A stretch of 64,000 nt of DNA. Origin: an uncultured archaeon (GTDB lineage Archaea > Asgardarchaeota > Lokiarchaeia > Sigyniarchaeales > SOKP01). A program made the translations under genes and the position numbers. Shown piece by piece: positions 40,864 to 50,874 of this stretch. Below the pieces are notes generated by a model that saw nothing but the letters and a program-made list of their open reading frames with translations, had not been told where the DNA came from and did no database searches. The first letter of the stretch is position 1, and every line of letters begins with the position of its first letter. Location of the stretch: contig CAZALK010000001.1 of the NCBI GenBank assembly GCA_964486045.1, positions 1 through 64,000 on the forward strand, in the 5' to 3' direction.

Positions 40864-41430
40864 TTAAAGATTCACACCATGATTTCTTAAGATTTGTCGC
40901 ACTAGAAGCAGAAAAGCTTCTTCTATGTTTTCTCCCAATTTTGCACTAGTTTCAATAAAATGACTAGCTTGAATATCATCAGCTAAATCTTTTCCTTTTT
41001 CAGTAGGAACTACCCGTTGATCACTTAAATCAGTTTTGTTTCCTATCAGGATATATACACCTTCTTTTCTAATGTATTTTTTGAAATCTCTCAACCATTT
41101 AGATTTTATGCTGTCAAAAGTATTATAGCGCGTAACGTCATAAACAAGTAGTGCACCTTCACACCCTTGAAAATACATTGATCGAATGACACTATATTTT
41201 TCTTGTCCTGCTAAATCCCACATAATCAATCTGATTTTCGTATTAACATCTTCTCCATCAATATCAACGTCTTTTCTTATGATATTTGCCCCCAGTGTAG
41301 GCTTGTAGTCGTCTAAAAATTGTCCTTCATAGAACTGATTAATTAAAGAGGTCTTACCAACCGCAGCATTGCCCAGAATAACAATTTTAAATACAAATTC
41401 TCGCAATTCCTTAGCTTCTTCAACTGTCAT
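40864..41430 (-). CDS. Rab-like small GTPase
   Basis: GNAAVGKT, WDLAGQE, GNKTD, ETSAK. Confidence 0.95.
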   Translation of the reverse strand: MTVEEAKELREFVFKIVILGNAAVGKTSLINQFYEGQFLDDYKPTLGANIIRKDVDIDGEDVNTKIRLIMWDLAGQEKYSVIRSMYFQGCEGALLVYDVTRYNTFDSIKSKWLRDFKKYIRKEGVYILIGNKTDLSDQRVVPTEKGKDLADDIQASHFIETSAKLGENIEEAFLLLVRQILRNHGVNL

Positions 41431-41644
41431 TTTGTATTATACAATTTTTCGCTTTAGTATTTAAGGTGTCAATTTTAATAATTTAACTAATTTGTAATTT
41501 GACTTTTATCTTTATAAGATTTTCTTCAATCTGCAATTTTCGATTTAAGAATCTTAATAAATTTTGATTTTTACTCAATTCCAAATTATAAACTGAGATT
41601 TCTTCTATCGATCTAATGCAATTTATATATTGTTGTTTGTCTAT

Positions 41645-42208
41645 TTAATACTTTTTTTCAATTTTCAATTTTAGAATAAAAGTATTATGATCAGGATGAT
41701 CGACATTTTCTTTTTCTCCGTAATGTGAAACCTTAAAATCTGATGGTAATGCTTTTTCTAAAGAATTTACTAAAAATCCTTTGAACATGTCGCATGGAAC
41801 TCCAATCTCAGAACAGAATATGCACTTTTGTATTGAGATCGTAATTAGATCTTTGGAATTCTCTTTAATTTCAACTTTCCAATCTGTGATTATCGTAGAG
41901 TTAATCTCATGAATAATCTCTTCAAAATTTTTCCCATATGGGAACAAATAAAATGAAAATTTCTTCCCAATTTCAAAAAGGAGCATCGAGGAATCAAATA
42001 ATAAACAATTCTGTGCAGAAATGATTTTTTTGAAAGAGAATAAATCTAAAGATTGATCTTGATCTTCTTCTCTAATATTTTTGATATGAAGCATTTCAGC
42101 TTCTCTTAAAATAGATTTCATTCCATCAAAATCAAGAACATCGTGATATGCTTGAAGAAGTGCAGTAATAACCTTAAACTTCACTTCTCCTTTATATTCG
42201 CCAATCAT
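41645..42208 (-). CDS. V4R-like domain protein
   Basis: LFEIGKKF, CIFC....PCDMFKGFL. Confidence 0.7.
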   Translation of the reverse strand: MIGEYKGEVKFKVITALLQAYHDVLDFDGMKSILREAEMLHIKNIREEDQDQSLDLFSFKKIISAQNCLLFDSSMLLFEIGKKFSFYLFPYGKNFEEIIHEINSTIITDWKVEIKENSKDLITISIQKCIFCSEIGVPCDMFKGFLVNSLEKALPSDFKVSHYGEKENVDHPDHNTFILKLKIEKKY

Positions 42209-42342
42209 TTCTTCCTTTTTCTTTTGAAATACTTTGTAGTGATAATTTTTAAAAATATAACTTGCTGTTATTTATCATCAAAAACCTAGTACCGCAATTT
42301 TCAATCCATATGATTTTTTATTCATCAAAGCCCACTCATTAT

Positions 42343-42771
42343 TTATAGGTTTAATAACGGTAAATCGAATTTAAGATCGGTTTTGCGATTCAATTTTTGG
42401 TCGATTTCAAATATAAAAACTTCTCCTGTAATAGAAATTATCGCAGGTTGGAGTAGGTGACCTCCCATAAGTGAAAATTCACTATTCCCGATGGTAATAT
42501 GAAGGTGAATTATTGCCTCATCATTTTTAAATGCGATATTCCCCGTGCATGAAACTAATTCAATGTACTCTTCAAACATCTTACTTTCATAAACTTTAGT
42601 GTCAATATTAAAATACCCAATTGTAAATTTTTTCAGAGCTCCAATACAATTAATAAACCCAGATTGAATCTTATGATTTTTAACCATTGTAATTATAGCT
42701 TCTATTAAATCCTCATTAGGTTCAACTTTCCCCACTATAACACGTCCTATTTTGGCTTCAATACTTCTCAA
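42343..42771 (-). CDS. PPC/DUF296 domain protein
   Basis: ELVSCTGNI, HLH, GGHL. Confidence 0.9.
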   Translation of the reverse strand: MRSIEAKIGRVIVGKVEPNEDLIEAIITMVKNHKIQSGFINCIGALKKFTIGYFNIDTKVYESKMFEEYIELVSCTGNIAFKNDEAIIHLHITIGNSEFSLMGGHLLQPAIISITGEVFIFEIDQKLNRKTDLKFDLPLLNL

Positions 42772-42800
42772 TTTTTTAACCTTTATTTCTTTCTTTTAGA

Positions 42801-43361
42801 TTATTTTATCGGACCATTAATAATATGATTGTTAATTAACACTTGGATGACTAATTTCTTAAAAGCGTTTTCTACATTATCCCCATTTTTAGCACTTGTC
42901 TCAATAAAATCAATCGCACTTATTTTCCCTGCCACTTCTTTTCCCTTTTCTGTCGATACAACTTTCGAGAGTCCTAAATCCTTTTTATTCCCGATAAGAA
43001 CATAAGCTGGATTTTTCTCGGTAAATTCTTTAAAATCCTTCAACCACTTAATTTCGATACTCTTGAGTGTGGATTGTCTAGTTATGTCATATATAAACAA
43101 CGCACCCATACACCCTTGAAAAAACATTCTACGGGATAGATCATATTTGTCTTGTCCGGCAATATCCCACAGAACTAACCGTATGTTAGCATTTACATCA
43201 TCTAAGATTATATCTTTGGTAAGTATATTAACTCCTAAGGTTGGTTGATAATCGGCTTTAAACCGATGCTGGATGTATTGAGTAATAAGGGAAGTCTTAC
43301 CTACAGCTGGATCTCCTAGTAGAGCTAGCTTTAAAACGAAGTTCTGATGTTTTCCTGACAT
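42801..43361 (-). CDS. Rab-like small GTPase
   Basis: GDPAVGKT, WDIAGQD, GNKKD, ETSAK. Confidence 0.95.
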   Translation of the reverse strand: MSGKHQNFVLKLALLGDPAVGKTSLITQYIQHRFKADYQPTLGVNILTKDIILDDVNANIRLVLWDIAGQDKYDLSRRMFFQGCMGALFIYDITRQSTLKSIEIKWLKDFKEFTEKNPAYVLIGNKKDLGLSKVVSTEKGKEVAGKISAIDFIETSAKNGDNVENAFKKLVIQVLINNHIINGPIK

Positions 43362-43559
43362 TTTTAATAAACCTTTAATTTATGTTAATTTTTTAATCCT
43401 TTTTCTTTAGTTCCTAATTAATTGATTATACATGCATGATAGATTCAGATTTTTTATATTTGAGCAAAAATAAAACGGCTATTTTTTAGCAGAAAACAAC
43501 CGTAATGGAAATACCATCACATTTTTAAAATTAATTATCCTTAATTATAATATTAACCT

Positions 43560-43710
43560 GGATGTGGATGTTGTGAATGTGTATACTAATTTCTTAAAAT
43601 CAATACAAAAAATATTTACTGTCTCATCTGCAATTATTATTAATTAAATTAATTTCTTTATGAAGTGAATTTTCACAACATTACTCCGCATCCCGCTTCA
43701 TAAATAAAGA
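43560..43710 (+). promoter_or_regulatory. Structured ileS 5' leader with alternative pairings (candidate attenuator)
   Basis: 11-bp stem 43657-43667/43694-43704; its loop (43672-43693) is complementary to 43560-43577. Confidence 0.65.
43564..43647 (+). CDS. Putative ileS leader peptide (MDVVNVYTNFLKSIQKIFTVSSAIIIN*)
   Basis: GTG starts at 43564/43573/43579; ATT-ATT-ATT at 43633-43641; directly upstream of ileS. Confidence 0.5.
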   Translation: MDVVNVYTNFLKSIQKIFTVSSAIIIN

Positions 43711-43801
43711 TATTGGTGATTTAAAACCAAAAATTGCGAATAAATATTTGTTTTTATTAATTAGTTAAATGAATGAAAATGCTACAATTATGGTGTAATC
43801 T

Positions 43802-46657
43802 ATGTCGTATAATGAAAAAGAAATAGAACTCATCCAATTTTGGAAAAACAATCATATATTTGAAAAAAGTGTTGAGGAAAGACCTAAGAAACTACCATAT
43901 ATTTTCTATGACGGTCCACCTTTTGCAACAGGATTACCTCATTACGGTCATATATTAAGTTTTGTTACCAAAGATGTGTTTCCAAGATATTGGACGATGA
44001 AAGGGTATCGTTGTGAGAGAAGGTGGGGTTGGGATTGTCATGGTCTCCCAATAGAAAGCATTTGTGAAAAAGCTCTAAATTTAAAACAAAAAAATGAAAT
44101 CTTCGAGATGGGTTTATCAAATTTCAATGAATATTGTCGATCAAGGGTATTATGGTATACTAATGAATGGAAAAATACTGTTGAACGAATGGGTAAATGG
44201 ATAGATTTTGATAATTCCTATAAAACTATGGATAACACTTATATGGAAACTGTGTGGTATATTTTCAAAAAAATCTATGAGGAAGGATTTGTATATAAGG
44301 GAAGAAAAGTATTATTTTATTGTCCTCGGTGTGAAACTCCACTTTCTAACTCAGAGATTTCTATGGATAATAGCTATAAAGACATTATTGAGGAATCTAT
44401 AACAGCAAAATTTGAGTTGAAAGAAGAACCAAGAACTTTTCTTCTAGCTTGGACTACAACACCCTGGACTTTAATAGGAAATGTAGCTTTAGCCATAAAT
44501 AGCGAACTCATGTATGTTAAAATTAAAATTGATGAAGAATTTTTAATTTTAATAAAAAACAAATTGGATATTATCAAAGATGAATATCAAATCATTGAGG
44601 AATTTAAGGGAAAAGAACTGCTAAATAAAAAATATTACTCCTTATACCAAACTTCCACTAATCACAATGGAAATGGTCATATTGTTATTGATGGTGGTGA
44701 AGATGTACTATCCGATGAAGGAACAGGAATTATACACATTGCTATTTACGGAGAATTTGATTATGAGATGATAAAAAAGTATAATTTACCAATAATTCAG
44801 CATATTAATGAACATGGTGAGTTGATAAGTGGTCCGAAAGATTGGATTGGAATATGGTTTAAAGATGTAGATAAAAAAGTCTTGAAGGACTTGAAACAGA
44901 GGAATCTTTTATTCAATTCGGAAGATTACACGCATTCTTATCCTTTTTGTTATAGATGTGATACTCCATTATTTTATAATGCTCTAGATGCCTGGTTTAT
45001 AAATATTCAACAAATAAAACCGCGTCTTTTGGAAACAAATGAAAAAATAAAGTGGTATCCTAAAGAGATTTCTAAACGATATCAAAACATAGTTGAAACT
45101 GCTCCTGACTGGTGCATTTCTAGAAATCGGTTTTGGGCTACGGCTATGCCGATCTGGATGTGTGAGGACTGTAACGAAACCAAAGTTATTGGTTCTATTA
45201 AGGAATTACAAGAGAATGCGATGGAGGAAGTTCCCGACAATCTGGATCTACACAGACATATAGTTGATGAGATACATCTTTGGTGCGCAGGATGTAACAA
45301 GGTCATGAATCGTATCCCAGAAGTATTTGATTGTTGGTTGGAATCAGGTTCAATGCCATATGCTGCAAAACATTACCCATTTGAAAACGTGGAATGGTTT
45401 GAAACCAATTTTCCTAGCGATTTTGTTTCGGAATATATCGGACAGGTTAGAGCGTGGTTTTACTATATGCATGTAGTATCAGTTCTTTTGGTTGATAATA
45501 TCCCATTTAGAAATGTCGTTGTAAATGGTAATATCCTTGCAGAAGATGGAACTAAGATGTCGAAGTCAAAGAGAAATTTCCCAGATCCTAATAAAATTGT
45601 TGAAAAATATGGAGCGGACGCTTTAAGGATCTATCTTTTATCTTCGCCTTTAATGAGAGCTAAGGACTTAAACTTTAAAGAGGAGATAGTTAAACAAGTT
45701 TATCGAAGATTTAATTTATTGCTAATTAATGTTCTAAAATTCTATTCAATGATTGAAATCAACGATTTAGCCGTAGATCTAACCAAATCAGATAATATTA
45801 TGGATAAGTGGATTATTAGTATGCTTAATGTCTTAATTCGTGAGGTTACTCAACGAATGGATGACTACGACACTGCAGAAACAAGTAAGTTATTCTTTAA
45901 TTTTGTCGAAGATCTCTCTACTTGGTTTGTTAAAAATAGCAGAGATCGATTTAAAAGTGAAATTGAAAGTATAAAAATATCTACGATGAACACACTTTCG
46001 TATGTACTTTCTAATCTATCAAAACTCTTAGCTCCTCTTACTCCGTTCATTTCAGAGGTGATTTACCAAAAATTGAAGGAAAAGGGAATAGTTAATTTAA
46101 ATTCTGTCCATTTGGAACCTTGGCCCATTTTTAATGAAAAATTAATCGATCTTAAGATGCATGAGAATATGATACTAACAAAAGATATAGTGACGAGATC
46201 ATTAGAATTAAGAGAAAATTCTAAGATACTAATTAGGCAAGTATTACAGAAAATAACAATAAGGGGGGTAAGTCTTAAAACTGAGTATTTAGATATCATT
46301 GCGGGAGCTATAAATGTGAGAAATGTAATAATTGAAAACGGTGAAAAAAAAGAACTTTTAATTGATTTAGATACAGAAATTACACCAGAATTAAGGCTTG
46401 AAGGTATTTCAAGAAATCTAATTAGGTATCTGAATAATTATAGAAAAAAATTGAATCTATCAACGAAAAATAGAATTAATCTCTATTTAGTAACAAATAA
46501 TGAAGACATTTTGAAAGCACTTGAAATATATGAAGAAAAAATTAAAAAATTTATACAAGCAGATAACATTATTAAAAATATCGAAGATCAGATGGATACT
46601 AAGAAATTCAAAATAGATAATAGCATTATTGAAGCATATATAGAGGTTAAAAATTAA
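43802..46657 (+). CDS. ileS: Isoleucine--tRNA ligase (IleRS2/eukaryote-like type)
   Basis: FYDGPPFATGLPHYGH, GWDCHGLP, WTTTPWTL, WCISRNRFW, KMSKS. Confidence 0.97.
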   Translation: MSYNEKEIELIQFWKNNHIFEKSVEERPKKLPYIFYDGPPFATGLPHYGHILSFVTKDVFPRYWTMKGYRCERRWGWDCHGLPIESICEKALNLKQKNEIFEMGLSNFNEYCRSRVLWYTNEWKNTVERMGKWIDFDNSYKTMDNTYMETVWYIFKKIYEEGFVYKGRKVLFYCPRCETPLSNSEISMDNSYKDIIEESITAKFELKEEPRTFLLAWTTTPWTLIGNVALAINSELMYVKIKIDEEFLILIKNKLDIIKDEYQIIEEFKGKELLNKKYYSLYQTSTNHNGNGHIVIDGGEDVLSDEGTGIIHIAIYGEFDYEMIKKYNLPIIQHINEHGELISGPKDWIGIWFKDVDKKVLKDLKQRNLLFNSEDYTHSYPFCYRCDTPLFYNALDAWFINIQQIKPRLLETNEKIKWYPKEISKRYQNIVETAPDWCISRNRFWATAMPIWMCEDCNETKVIGSIKELQENAMEEVPDNLDLHRHIVDEIHLWCAGCNKVMNRIPEVFDCWLESGSMPYAAKHYPFENVEWFETNFPSDFVSEYIGQVRAWFYYMHVVSVLLVDNIPFRNVVVNGNILAEDGTKMSKSKRNFPDPNKIVEKYGADALRIYLLSSPLMRAKDLNFKEEIVKQVYRRFNLLLINVLKFYSMIEINDLAVDLTKSDNIMDKWIISMLNVLIREVTQRMDDYDTAETSKLFFNFVEDLSTWFVKNSRDRFKSEIESIKISTMNTLSYVLSNLSKLLAPLTPFISEVIYQKLKEKGIVNLNSVHLEPWPIFNEKLIDLKMHENMILTKDIVTRSLELRENSKILIRQVLQKITIRGVSLKTEYLDIIAGAINVRNVIIENGEKKELLIDLDTEITPELRLEGISRNLIRYLNNYRKKLNLSTKNRINLYLVTNNEDILKALEIYEEKIKKFIQADNIIKNIEDQMDTKKFKIDNSIIEAYIEVKN

Positions 46658-46717: not shown

Positions 46718-48157
46718 ATGCTTTTCTTTGTTATGCTCAAAATCTATAACACAATGACAAGAGAGAAGGGAATTTTTACACCGCTCGAAAAAGGTCATGT
46801 GAAGATCTACACATGCGGTCAAACAGTTTATGATGATGTACATATTGGTAATGCAAGAACATATAGTTCTTGGGATGTAGTAGTTCGATATTTACGTTAT
46901 AAAGGATACATTGTATTTCATGTTCAGAATTTTACAGATGTTGGTCATCTAACTGATGATGCTGACCAAGGAGAAGATAAAATAGAAAAAAGAGCACGAG
47001 AGCAAAAAGTTAATCCCTGGGAGTTGGTTGATAAACAGATCCAAGAATATTGGTATGTAATTGATAATCTAAATATAGATAGGCCAAATATTACACCAAG
47101 AGCAACGTCACTCATTCCTGAAATGATTGAACTTGTTGAAATACTTTTGGAAAAGGGGTATGCCTATGAAGTACAAGGAAATGTTTATTATGATATTTCG
47201 AAATTCAGTGATTATACAAAACTTTCTAGGTTAAAACTTGATGAAGAACAAGCAAAAGCCCGAGTTAAACAAGATCCCCTTAAAAGGAGCTATTTTGATT
47301 TTGCACTATGGCTAAATGCTCAAAAAGGTGATAAAAAACATATAATGAGATGGAGATCTCCATGGGGAGAAGGATACCCTGGATGGCATCTTGAATGTTC
47401 TATTATGGCGATGAAATATTTAGGGGAGACAATTGATATTCATGGTGGAGGAATCGATCATATCCCCACTCACCATCCAAATGAAATCGCTCAAGCGGAA
47501 GCTGCAACAGGAAATCAGTTTGTTCGCTGTTGGATGCATGCTAAGTTTATAACATTAAATGGTAAAAAGATGAGTAAAAGCCTTGGAAATTATGTAACTG
47601 CCCGTGAACTAATTGATAAGCATGGAGGATTAGTAGTAAGAATGGGTTTAGTATCTGGACACTATAGATCTGCTGTTGATTGGAATCCAGATGTTATTGA
47701 AAATGCTAAGAAGAATATTTCAAGAATTCAAAACTGTTTAAGTTTAATAAAGGATTCCATCGGTGGGACAAACGAAAACCTAAATCAAGCTATGGAAGAT
47801 GTAAAAAATTCCTTTGAAGAAGCTATGGATGATGATTTTAATTCCCCTAAAGCACTCTCTGCGATTCATGAATTTATTACAAAAATAAATTCATCGCTGA
47901 ATAACAAGAAGGATTTACTTATTGGAGCAAGAGACACACTACTAGAGTTACTTGGTGTTTTTGGTCTTGATTTCACAAAAAAGAAGGGAATAGATGATGA
48001 TAAAATAAATGAGTTAATGGATCTCATATTTAACATTAGGGAAATTGCTAGAAATGAAAAGAATTATGAATTAAGTGATCAAATAAGGGAAAAACTACGA
48101 ACTGTAGGGATTCAAATTGAAGATACAGAAAACGGTCCACGGTGGAGAATGACTTAA
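46718..48157 (+). CDS. cysS: Cysteine--tRNA ligase
   Basis: CGQTVYD..HIGNAR, PGWHLECS, KMSKSLGN; start likely ATG 46733. Confidence 0.97.
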   Translation: MLFFVMLKIYNTMTREKGIFTPLEKGHVKIYTCGQTVYDDVHIGNARTYSSWDVVVRYLRYKGYIVFHVQNFTDVGHLTDDADQGEDKIEKRAREQKVNPWELVDKQIQEYWYVIDNLNIDRPNITPRATSLIPEMIELVEILLEKGYAYEVQGNVYYDISKFSDYTKLSRLKLDEEQAKARVKQDPLKRSYFDFALWLNAQKGDKKHIMRWRSPWGEGYPGWHLECSIMAMKYLGETIDIHGGGIDHIPTHHPNEIAQAEAATGNQFVRCWMHAKFITLNGKKMSKSLGNYVTARELIDKHGGLVVRMGLVSGHYRSAVDWNPDVIENAKKNISRIQNCLSLIKDSIGGTNENLNQAMEDVKNSFEEAMDDDFNSPKALSAIHEFITKINSSLNNKKDLLIGARDTLLELLGVFGLDFTKKKGIDDDKINELMDLIFNIREIARNEKNYELSDQIREKLRTVGIQIEDTENGPRWRMT

Positions 48158-49134: not shown

Positions 49135-50874
49135 TTACTCTTGCATTTTTTGTAAAAGTTCCTCGATTTCCGCTTGGATAATTTCGGGATTTTTAGCAGT
49201 TTCACCTGCTATCGCGAGCTTTCTCTCTATAACAGGTCTATGAAGCGTATTCATCGCACAAAAGGGAACTTCACGAACTTTAGTAGGATCGTCTGGATCG
49301 ATTACTCCATAATGTACGAGGCACCTACATACTCTGTCGAGGTCAAAATTGTATGCATCTTGGAAGTGCATGCTGCTTATCATTATATTGCGTGTATGCA
49401 AAAAATTAGCAGCGGAATTAAAGTTTGGATTCATTACCAATCGAGCAAAACTTTGATACGTTTTACTAGTAAGAATTTTGCCAGGATTTTTAATGTAGCG
49501 CGCTGATCCCGCGAAGTAGTAGGCTTTTATGATTTGGCGATATCCAAGATCGGTCATGTCGTCAACAAAATCACCAATTTTTGAAAAGATTTTTCCGAAG
49601 CTATCTAAATTGATACCTTTTAGAAGGCCAGTTGGCTTTGGAATCTCCCTATTTTGGACCATATCCCATACTTTGTTTGACCACCTTACCATACCTTCAA
49701 TGTCAAAATATTCTTCAATAGCCTCCCACTCATTATTGTTATTAACGATACATATAGTACAGAAGCCGCAGTCGTTGTGCGATGTCATACTGAAGGTAGG
49801 CATCTCGTCAAACCACGCAAGTAATCGAGTCATTTTCGCAGTTGTAGCGATAGGATAAAATTGTCCAATTGCTCCATTAGTATGTTTATTTATCGCTTCT
49901 TTTAGATCGGATGTAGTATATCTGATATCCATTAATTCTTCAAAACTGATACGACCAGTTAACGAAACGGGTTGGAAAATAACTCCTGAAACGACGTCAG
50001 TATTATCTTTAGCATAATCTAAGATGTTCCCAATTTGATTATCATTTACCCCTTTAGCGACAGTTGGGACTAATACAACCCCCTGAAATCCAATTTTCCG
50101 ACAATTCTCGATGACCTTCTTTTTAAGTGGCCATAAATTAACGCCTCTTATCTTTTTCCATACTTCAGGAGCATCAGTAGCATCAAATTGTAAATAGACA
50201 GCATTCATCCCCGCATCCCAACATTTTTTTATGAGTTCTGGGGACTTAGCGAATTTAACACCATTAGTTGTTACCATAAGTTCAGTAAAACCTAGTTCTT
50301 TTCCTTTTCGAATGATCTCAGGGAGGTCATCTCTCATAGTCGGTTCTCCACCGGAGAGTTGAAGTAAAACAGCAGGAATAGGTTTCATTGACCTGAAATG
50401 TTTCATGATTTGCACTATTTGATCAAATGTAGGCTCTACAATATATCCTTTAGCACTGGCATTGGCAAAACAAATTGGGCAAGTGAGATTGCATCGATTA
50501 GTTACATCTATTAGGCAGATATTCGGAGCGCTCTTGTGATTATTACAGAGACCGCAGTCGTAAGGGCATCCTTTTTTTACTTCTTTGATTCCCGAGGAGA
50601 CAGATTCAGGTTTAGTGGAATTATTTGTAGTAGAGCCGATATCTGTGGTAAAAGTCTGCTGCCATTTGTAATCTTCTGAATTGCTTGACAATTTATCTTT
50701 GAATTCTCCATGATCCTCACAAGTTTTCCGCATCATAACCCAATTTGTCTCGGGATCTACATAAATTTCAGCCTGAATATGTTTAACACAATCAGGACAG
50801 ATGCTTGTGGTTGTTCGGATGATTTCTAAACCATCTTTCGTAGTTCGAGTAATTCCTTCAGTCATAATAATCAA
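49135..50874 (-). CDS. tes: Tetraether lipid synthase-like radical SAM enzyme (Tes/GDGT-MAS, MJ0619 family)
   Basis: N-terminal CPDC...CEDHG, GCPYDCGLC..H, CNLTCPIC, C-terminal CRCLVHY...PFCAMN. Confidence 0.85.
   Translation of the reverse strand: MIIMTEGITRTTKDGLEIIRTTTSICPDCVKHIQAEIYVDPETNWVMMRKTCEDHGEFKDKLSSNSEDYKWQQTFTTDIGSTTNNSTKPESVSSGIKEVKKGCPYDCGLCNNHKSAPNICLIDVTNRCNLTCPICFANASAKGYIVEPTFDQIVQIMKHFRSMKPIPAVLLQLSGGEPTMRDDLPEIIRKGKELGFTELMVTTNGVKFAKSPELIKKCWDAGMNAVYLQFDATDAPEVWKKIRGVNLWPLKKKVIENCRKIGFQGVVLVPTVAKGVNDNQIGNILDYAKDNTDVVSGVIFQPVSLTGRISFEELMDIRYTTSDLKEAINKHTNGAIGQFYPIATTAKMTRLLAWFDEMPTFSMTSHNDCGFCTICIVNNNNEWEAIEEYFDIEGMVRWSNKVWDMVQNREIPKPTGLLKGINLDSFGKIFSKIGDFVDDMTDLGYRQIIKAYYFAGSARYIKNPGKILTSKTYQSFARLVMNPNFNSAANFLHTRNIMISSMHFQDAYNFDLDRVCRCLVHYGVIDPDDPTKVREVPFCAMNTLHRPVIERKLAIAGETAKNPEIIQAEIEELLQKMQE

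Follow-up and report, generated by a model that had tools for sequence, protein, structure and literature searches.

A candidate leader-peptide attenuator responsive to charged isoleucine tRNA upstream of a second isoleucyl-tRNA synthetase gene in a Lokiarchaeia archaeon

Does a short, isoleucine-rich reading frame upstream of an isoleucyl-tRNA synthetase (IleRS) gene in an uncultured Lokiarchaeia archaeon serve as a sensor through which ribosomes control that gene? The question arises in the window, by which we mean the whole 64,000-nt stretch of DNA analysed (contig CAZALK010000001.1, positions 1 to 64,000). The original prediction described an Ile-rich uORF, an 11-bp stem downstream of it and a complementarity between the loop of that stem and the uORF start region, and it proposed that charged tRNA-Ile levels control ileS. 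A check of the sequence recovered every one of these elements at its predicted position. The features needed for the argument, all on the plus strand, are as follows.

43510..43530, plus: putative promoter, a BRE-like stretch and TATA box (TTTTAAAA at 43523-30), assigned from base conservation
43555, plus: predicted transcription start, ~25 nt past the TATA box (A in 55/60 orthologues; archaeal promoter spacing)
43560..43568, plus: region A, the leader Shine-Dalgarno (SD) sequence and common 5' arm of helices P1 and Palt (conservation, 16S complementarity)
43573..43647, plus: leader uORF, 24 codons, GTG start, TAA at 43645-47 (open-frame selection)
43621..43632, plus: region A', 3' arm of P1, consensus register 43621-29, codons I-I-S (pairing, RNAalifold consensus)
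43633..43641, plus: sensor ATT ATT ATT, invariant in 60/60
43657..43667, plus: region B, 5' arm of stem P3 (pairing and two-sided changes)
43668..43693, plus: U/C-rich P3 loop ending in region C (43685-93), the anti-SD partner of A in Palt (pairing)
43694..43704, plus: region D, 3' arm of stem P3 (pairing, RNAalifold consensus, changes on the tree)
43747..43755, plus: downstream U-tract TTTGTTTTT, a second candidate termination site or an internal TATA box (T-run enrichment)
43790..43801, plus: ileS2 ribosome-binding site, GGTG at 43792-95 (GGTG-like motif conserved)
43802..46657, plus: ileS2, second IleRS, 951 aa, HYGH and KMSKS motifs intact (TIGR00392, 813 bits, above cut-off)
46718..48157, plus: cysS (TIGR00435, above cut-off)

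The second IleRS gene and its neighbours

Judged from sequence, the gene behind the leader is a second, patchily distributed IleRS copy, ileS2, and not the housekeeping ileS named in the original prediction. The native enzyme (1049 aa, encoded from G000:C1:894469 onward) is only 30% identical to it, and no cognate leader was seen in the upstream region of the native gene. The ileS2 gene was found in 13 of 24 genomes of the same genus and not in any of the 16 that represent other families of the order; in three genomes it is the sole IleRS copy found, perhaps because the assemblies are incomplete. In a quick IleRS tree built from the N-terminal 300 residues and lacking a firm root, the ileS2 copies formed a single clade (SH-aLRT 100) within a group of DPANN-like enzymes (99), distant from the native copies. 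The simplest reading of this placement is that ileS2 was acquired horizontally from DPANN. Upstream of the DPANN-like relatives, the sister pair L068/L072 included, no such leader was found, and we rejected on that ground the idea that it was inherited from the donor group.

The gene cysS adjoins ileS2 in many orthologous loci and is present in 35 of the 60 as fetched. On the minus strand, two Rab-like GTPase genes enclose a PPC-like gene and one for a 187-aa product that matches no NCBIfam family (40864-43361); the same strand carries a gene for the tetraether lipid synthase Tes, above its NCBIfam cut-off (49135-50874). The synthetase itself varies among orthologues. Residues 47-50, the HIGH motif, are changed in 17/60 (to HYGN, QHGN or HYGQ; L003, L007, L011, L013, L014, L044 and others), a hint of changed catalysis or of relaxed selection. 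In about 25/60, ATT, ATA, GTT or TTA stands in place of the ATG start (L004, L006-L008, L010-L014 and others) at an unchanged distance from the GGTG motif, the alternative start being an in-frame GTG within the SD sequence; ATH codons are mildly enriched 3' of SD motifs across the genome. We found no match to ilvC, the only gene of its pathway tested, in the 99%-complete host genome, and its absence may mean that isoleucine supply limits growth.

Conservation of the leader and its helices

We compared 60 non-redundant leaders (<97% identity) with enough upstream sequence, and the TATA box, the SD sequence, the uORF, the three ATT codons and P3 were found in all 60 of these ileS2 orthologues. 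Within the same genus, the leader occurs in 13/13 genomes with ileS2 and in 0/11 without it, and this linkage is strict despite differing upstream neighbours. The pattern was found in 29/53 and 9/42 genomes of two genera that belong to one family, two further matches looking like chance. No additional copy of the element was found elsewhere in the host genome, which has a GC content of 31% and belongs, judged by its nearest relatives, to the Promethearchaeota (Lokiarchaeia). Upstream of the SD sequence, T is found at −37 to −34 in 56-59 of the 60 orthologues and A at −31 in 53; the TATA-like TTTTTAAAA of the window was confirmed at 43522-30, and the predicted start at 43555 follows the TATA-box-to-start spacing generally known for archaeal promoters. 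On the minus strand, an 11-bp hairpin with a T tail (43475-43503) lies between two divergent promoters and is not evident in relatives.

The SD sequence reads GGATGTGG in all leaders except two, which have AGATGTGG. It is complementary to the 3' end of the host 16S rRNA (GATCACCTCC), and its spacing to the uORF start coincides with the SD peak of the genome. Because related sequences are not independent, changes were counted on a tree built from the coding sequence; region A showed 0.12 changes per column, compared with 7.6 in uORF codons 2-16. Three in-frame GTG codons (43564, 43573 and 43579), all running to the TAA at 43645-47, had been offered as starts. Only 43573 is conserved, as ATG in 58/60 leaders, ATT in one and GTG in the window, with the ATG exactly 5 nt past GGATGTGG in 58/60; 43564 and 43579, not conserved across orthologues, were rejected. 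A four-codon Met-Trp reading frame at 43562-43576, the stop codon of which overlaps the leader start, is present in 56/60 orthologues and is probably a by-product of the SD sequence.

In length the uORF ranges from 20 to 25 codons (60-75 nt), always a multiple of 3, and differs among leaders by whole codons only. Internal stops are absent from its frame in all 60, while the other two frames are blocked in 60/60 and 59/60; its variable part holds no stop among 138 distinct codons, against about 14 expected under neutrality. These patterns indicate that the reading frame is under selection. Each leader carries 5-10 Ile codons (five within the final 14 codons in the window), and the peptide is variable apart from the Ile run and one Ser, the codon of which is part of a helix arm. 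The triplet ATT ATT ATT underwent no change on the tree, whereas third positions of codons 2-16 changed 4-14 times. Taken together, the leader is, in our judgement, very probably a translated isoleucine sensor.

The RNA of 43555-43704 is predicted to fold more stably than any of 200 shuffles (z = −3.4), and the stem region is likewise stable (z = −2.9; 1/200). Among 48 SD-led uORFs with an amino-acid run, collected in a genome-wide screen, pairing of the SD region with downstream RNA was strongest for this leader (−22.3 kcal/mol; next, −18.1). Three helices deserve attention. The first is P3 (43657-67 with 43694-704), which begins 9 nt after the stop codon and not ten as reported, and which consists of ten Watson-Crick pairs and one G-U in the window. 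Across the alignment 95.9% of its cells are paired and five pairs show two-sided changes; pair 43666/43695 underwent 16 state changes on the tree and never lost pairing. The second is Palt, in which the SD region pairs over 8-9 bp with 43685-93 (98.7% of cells paired; in the window, seven pairs and one G-U between 43560-67 and 43686-93). This part of the proposed 18-bp complementarity held up well, but its extension (43568-77 with 43672-81), 10 bp in the window, is paired in only 70.7% of cells. The third, P1, was missing from the original prediction; it joins the SD region to 43621-29, immediately 5' of the Ile run, and is paired in 95.6% of cells. The window's own best P1 fold shifts to 43563-70 with 43625-32, and P1 is weaker there than in most relatives.

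The RNAalifold consensus is P1 plus P3. P1 and Palt are near-invariant, and their covariation support comes from few events; in L061 and L144, the first G of region A and its partners in A' and C have all changed together, in a single event. Palt and P3 had been proposed to exclude each other. They have no nucleotide in common in the window, where exclusivity is topological (pseudoknot-like), but they overlap directly or through the extension in 38/60 leaders. The uORF, its Ile codons and the pairings, on whose conservation in relatives the original prediction was to be judged, are conserved in the 60 orthologues with compensatory changes.

Ribosome position, polarity and output

Which of the two states, P1 plus P3 or Palt, would correspond to isoleucine shortage depends on what a ribosome covers. 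The elongating ribosome of Haloferax protects 27 nt, beginning 12 nt upstream of the P site (PMC7261190). We adopted this footprint for the Asgard leader, although it may not be that of the host. P1 and P3 are separated by 27 nt, one such footprint with the stop codon in the A site, in 40/60 leaders; in 55/60 the distance falls within 26-29 nt. In the window, a ribosome at the stop codon would cover 43630-56 and leave A' and B both free. It had been argued that such a ribosome would mask the left arm of the stem; with the Haloferax footprint, the protected region ends at 43656 and the arm begins at 43657. A ribosome stalled on Ile, because the P1-P3 gap equals one footprint, would break P1 and favour Palt over P3 (0.91 and 0.05, respectively, in the folding model). 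With P1 pre-formed, the modelled probability of P3 is 0.78, and in transcripts ending 12 nt past the stop codon, that of P1 is 0.85-0.88. At equilibrium, Palt reaches 0.64 in naked RNA and 0.75 in the stop state; since Palt wins even there, the OFF state would need a kinetic trap in which P1 forms first.

We, therefore, propose the following sequence of events. Transcription would begin near 43555, and a ribosome would bind the SD sequence and translate the leader, a step that conservation strongly supports. When isoleucine is plentiful, the model has the ribosome at the stop codon uncovering A' and B, so that P1 could re-form before C is made, locking the SD away, and P3 could form with its U/C-rich loop single-stranded. 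When isoleucine is scarce, the ribosome would stall on the three ATT codons and cover A', and the free SD region would capture the emerging region C as Palt, partly masking the U/C loop and preventing P3. The modelled loop is unpaired at 0.81 in the OFF state and 0.57 in the ON state. In the last and weakest step, the P1 plus P3 state would lead to an early end of transcription, most likely with aCPSF1/FttA acting on the exposed U/C tract or on the U-tract 43 nt downstream, while the Palt state would allow read-through into ileS2. According to the folding models, then, ileS2 is most likely turned on when charged isoleucine tRNA is short, and the 11-bp stem more probably belongs to the isoleucine-plentiful (OFF) state, the reverse of the polarity first suggested, which had been drawn without P1. 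As a whole, the mechanism, ribosome-dependent attenuation of the second IleRS gene in response to charged tRNA-Ile(GAU), appears to us reasonably likely. Control by charged tRNA-Ile, as originally envisaged, thus remains the best reading of the leader, applied to the second gene copy.

One alternative, to which we assign a small but appreciable likelihood, keeps the sensor and inverts the polarity. Queued ribosomes would hold the SD region during starvation, P3 would protect the transcript, and after their release Palt would be the OFF state and would also shut down re-initiation at the leader. The folding model gives this some footing, in that P3 rises to 0.91 when a second ribosome occupies the SD behind one stalled on the first Ile codon, and Palt is favoured in naked RNA at equilibrium. 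The polarity that we have chosen, therefore, is well ahead of its reverse and not certain. Inverted polarity, however, leaves P1 without a role and is at odds with a consensus of P1 plus P3; the 27-nt footprint at the stop codon does not reach B, and the hairpins of the leuS sister leaders (see below) begin at the stop codon, which would place their outer arm under a ribosome stalled on Leu.

The output of the switch is probably premature termination at the U/C-rich loop, a best guess reached by elimination. No hairpin-plus-U terminator was found on the plus strand; P3 is followed by A-rich RNA, in agreement with the original observation that no U-tract directly follows the stem. The host genome encodes aCPSF1, and archaea, to our knowledge, have no Rho. 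No hairpin is needed for aCPSF1, the Loki orthologue included, to recognise a U-tract (PMC8716108). In a promoter/terminator word model that separates the two classes only weakly (means −0.09 and 0.02, sd ~0.2), the P3 loop of the main clade is terminator-like, lying at the 95th percentile of promoter-side and the 87th percentile of terminator-side windows. In 47 sequences, and not in 13, the loop is terminator-like and its exposure is greater in the OFF state; a 13-member subclade lacks the pyrimidine loop and largely lacks the downstream U-tract. A T-run of at least 5 is found 35-68 nt past P3 in 72% of orthologues compared with 25% of intergenic windows, a count in which kin are not independent. 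The accessibility of this downstream tract did not differ between switch states in the folding model.

An equally modest share of our belief goes to the possibility that the isoleucine sensor acts after transcription, on ileS2 translation initiation or on mRNA cleavage or decay. The lack of a classical terminator would fit such an output, as would the non-ATG codon at the start position in about 25/60 orthologues and the match of the anti-SD region C to an ATGTGG before the start in part of one subclade. We rejected sequestration of the ileS2 ribosome-binding site for most orthologues. For region C and the C-D segment, pairing with the cognate site does not exceed that with control sites (median percentiles, 0.64 and 0.59), the pairing energy is −6.9 kcal/mol for cognate and non-cognate sites alike, the accessibility of the site stays at 0.41-0.44 in every modelled state, and no pairing is conserved among orthologues beyond P3.

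Ribosome occupancy alone is an improbable explanation. A stalled ribosome would shield the U/C tract from aCPSF1 or remain coupled to the polymerase, in the manner of tnaC-type Rho control, and the helices would do no more than determine pausing and how often the leader is initiated. It has been proposed that aCPSF1 and the ribosome exclude each other on Spt4/5 (PMC8116511; PMC11616081), and the region after the stop codon is terminator-like in both subclades. Against it, three arm-sharing helices are conserved with compensation, beyond what occupancy needs, and the loop lies 25-50 nt past the stalled footprint.

Still less probable is a separate small-protein or small-RNA gene in place of a leader uORF, with ileS2 transcribed from a promoter of its own at the T-tract near 43747-60. 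This tract is TATA-like and lies about 50 nt before the ileS2 start; the word model, uninformative for both TATA-like tracts, neither singles out the putative promoter nor separates promoter from terminator at the T-tract. An independent gene would not account for a peptide that varies freely save for the Ile run and the Ser of the helix arm, for three ATT codons without any synonymous change, for the strict linkage to ileS2 across different upstream neighbours or for the match between the amino acid sensed and the gene downstream. Finally, bacterial ileS genes are T-box targets (PMC1262725) and the four-codon M-W-x-x frame (ATG TGG at 43562) overlaps the leader start in 56/60, but a T-box riboswitch or a Trp-sensing micro-ORF is highly improbable given that the region and genome have no match to Rfam RF00230 (nothing near the leader came close to a gathering score), that there is no UGGU to pair with the ACCA of tRNA-Ile, that ATGTGG is accounted for by three simultaneous pairing constraints and that the target gene is unrelated to Trp.

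Sister leaders and comparison with known systems

A scan of the host genome identified leaders with matching codons before leuS, trpD and trpB2, and a Cys-rich leader before a probable cysteine synthase was also observed. The sister leader loci L192, L194 and L193 are at G000 C17:41750, C1:~674420 and C25:~32150, respectively; the leuS leader (L191; relatives L198-L202) is at G000:C21:37452-37772. Six genomes have the leuS leader in conserved form, and the U/C tract behind it is looped out or, alternatively, paired. The trpD and trpB2 leaders, both Trp-rich, have WQWPWR in common. The Ile and Leu sensors are one trinucleotide repeat in different frames (ATT and TTA), with no synonymous change in either. 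Host leuS is only ~42% identical to the copies in four relatives, and the remnant of an older leuS 5' end sits between leader and gene, which suggests that leuS was replaced in place. In Nanoarchaeia (L182, L153), unrelated Ile-rich uORFs of 10-11 codons lie ~135 nt before ileS; after them comes a U/C tract whose pairing partner is a purine tract further downstream.

We offer, tentatively, a broader scheme of attenuation of transcription in Asgard archaea. A ribosome that stalls would use an SD-based antiterminator to keep aCPSF1 (the CPSF73 homologue) from a U/C tract, and the ileS2 leader, one of a genome-wide set (Ile, Leu, Trp, Cys), would have become attached to a DPANN-derived synthetase after its transfer. 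Being compact and well conserved, the leader lends itself to testing whether transcription-translation coupling in archaea has a regulatory use, whether aCPSF1 can be conditionally switched within a 5' leader, and by what means Asgard archaea sense their amino-acid supply. A route by which a horizontally acquired synthetase came under control is suggested as well.

The classical leader-peptide attenuators are trpL, hisL, thrL and ilvL of E. coli and pheM before pheST. The ileS2 leader resembles them in that its uORF is short, carries tandem codons for one amino acid towards its 3' end and precedes a gene serving this amino acid; in our model, it also has a default two-hairpin state opposed by a competing helix, with the choice made by ribosome position. 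It differs in its archaeal host, in a competing helix that joins the leader SD to the loop of the second hairpin instead of forming a 2:3 helix, and in a second hairpin that has a 26-nt loop, no U-run directly after it and no intrinsic terminator. The leader would thus work like a leader-peptide attenuator without two of its defining features, the 2:3 antiterminator and the intrinsic terminator. Attenuators have also been predicted before synthetase genes (trpS and leuS) in Streptomyces (PMC1262725).

Also comparable are the Rho-dependent tnaC and the mycobacterial poly-Cys leaders, which likewise combine a cognate-codon sensor and a pyrimidine-rich tract after the uORF with the lack of a classical terminator (PMC1262725; bioRxiv 10.1101/834739). 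Unlike these, the ileS2 leader has an SD sequence and conserved helices, and its candidate factor is the nuclease aCPSF1/FttA. A study of 2021 stated that no mechanism of transcription attenuation or antitermination was known in archaea (PMC8448881), and a literature search that covered few subscription journals returned no later published example. The signal that we propose, U-rich single-stranded RNA, is that of archaeal aCPSF1/U-tract termination, which needs no hairpin and for which premature termination near promoters has been proposed (PMC8716108, PMC11616081, PMC8448881); conditional, ribosome-switched use of aCPSF1 was not found in the searchable literature.

With respect to the regulated gene, ileS2 has the canonical HYGH and not the GXHH motif of hyper-resistance to mupirocin (10.1101/2023.01.31.526100). 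A parallel is Priestia megaterium, which has two IleRS genes, the second of which is inducible through a leader that responds to tRNA-Ile charging by means of a T-box together with CodY (bioRxiv 10.1101/2022.02.09.479832). In both cases a second IleRS would stand behind a leader that senses tRNA-Ile charging; in the archaeon, the sensor would be a translated uORF in place of the T-box and CodY.
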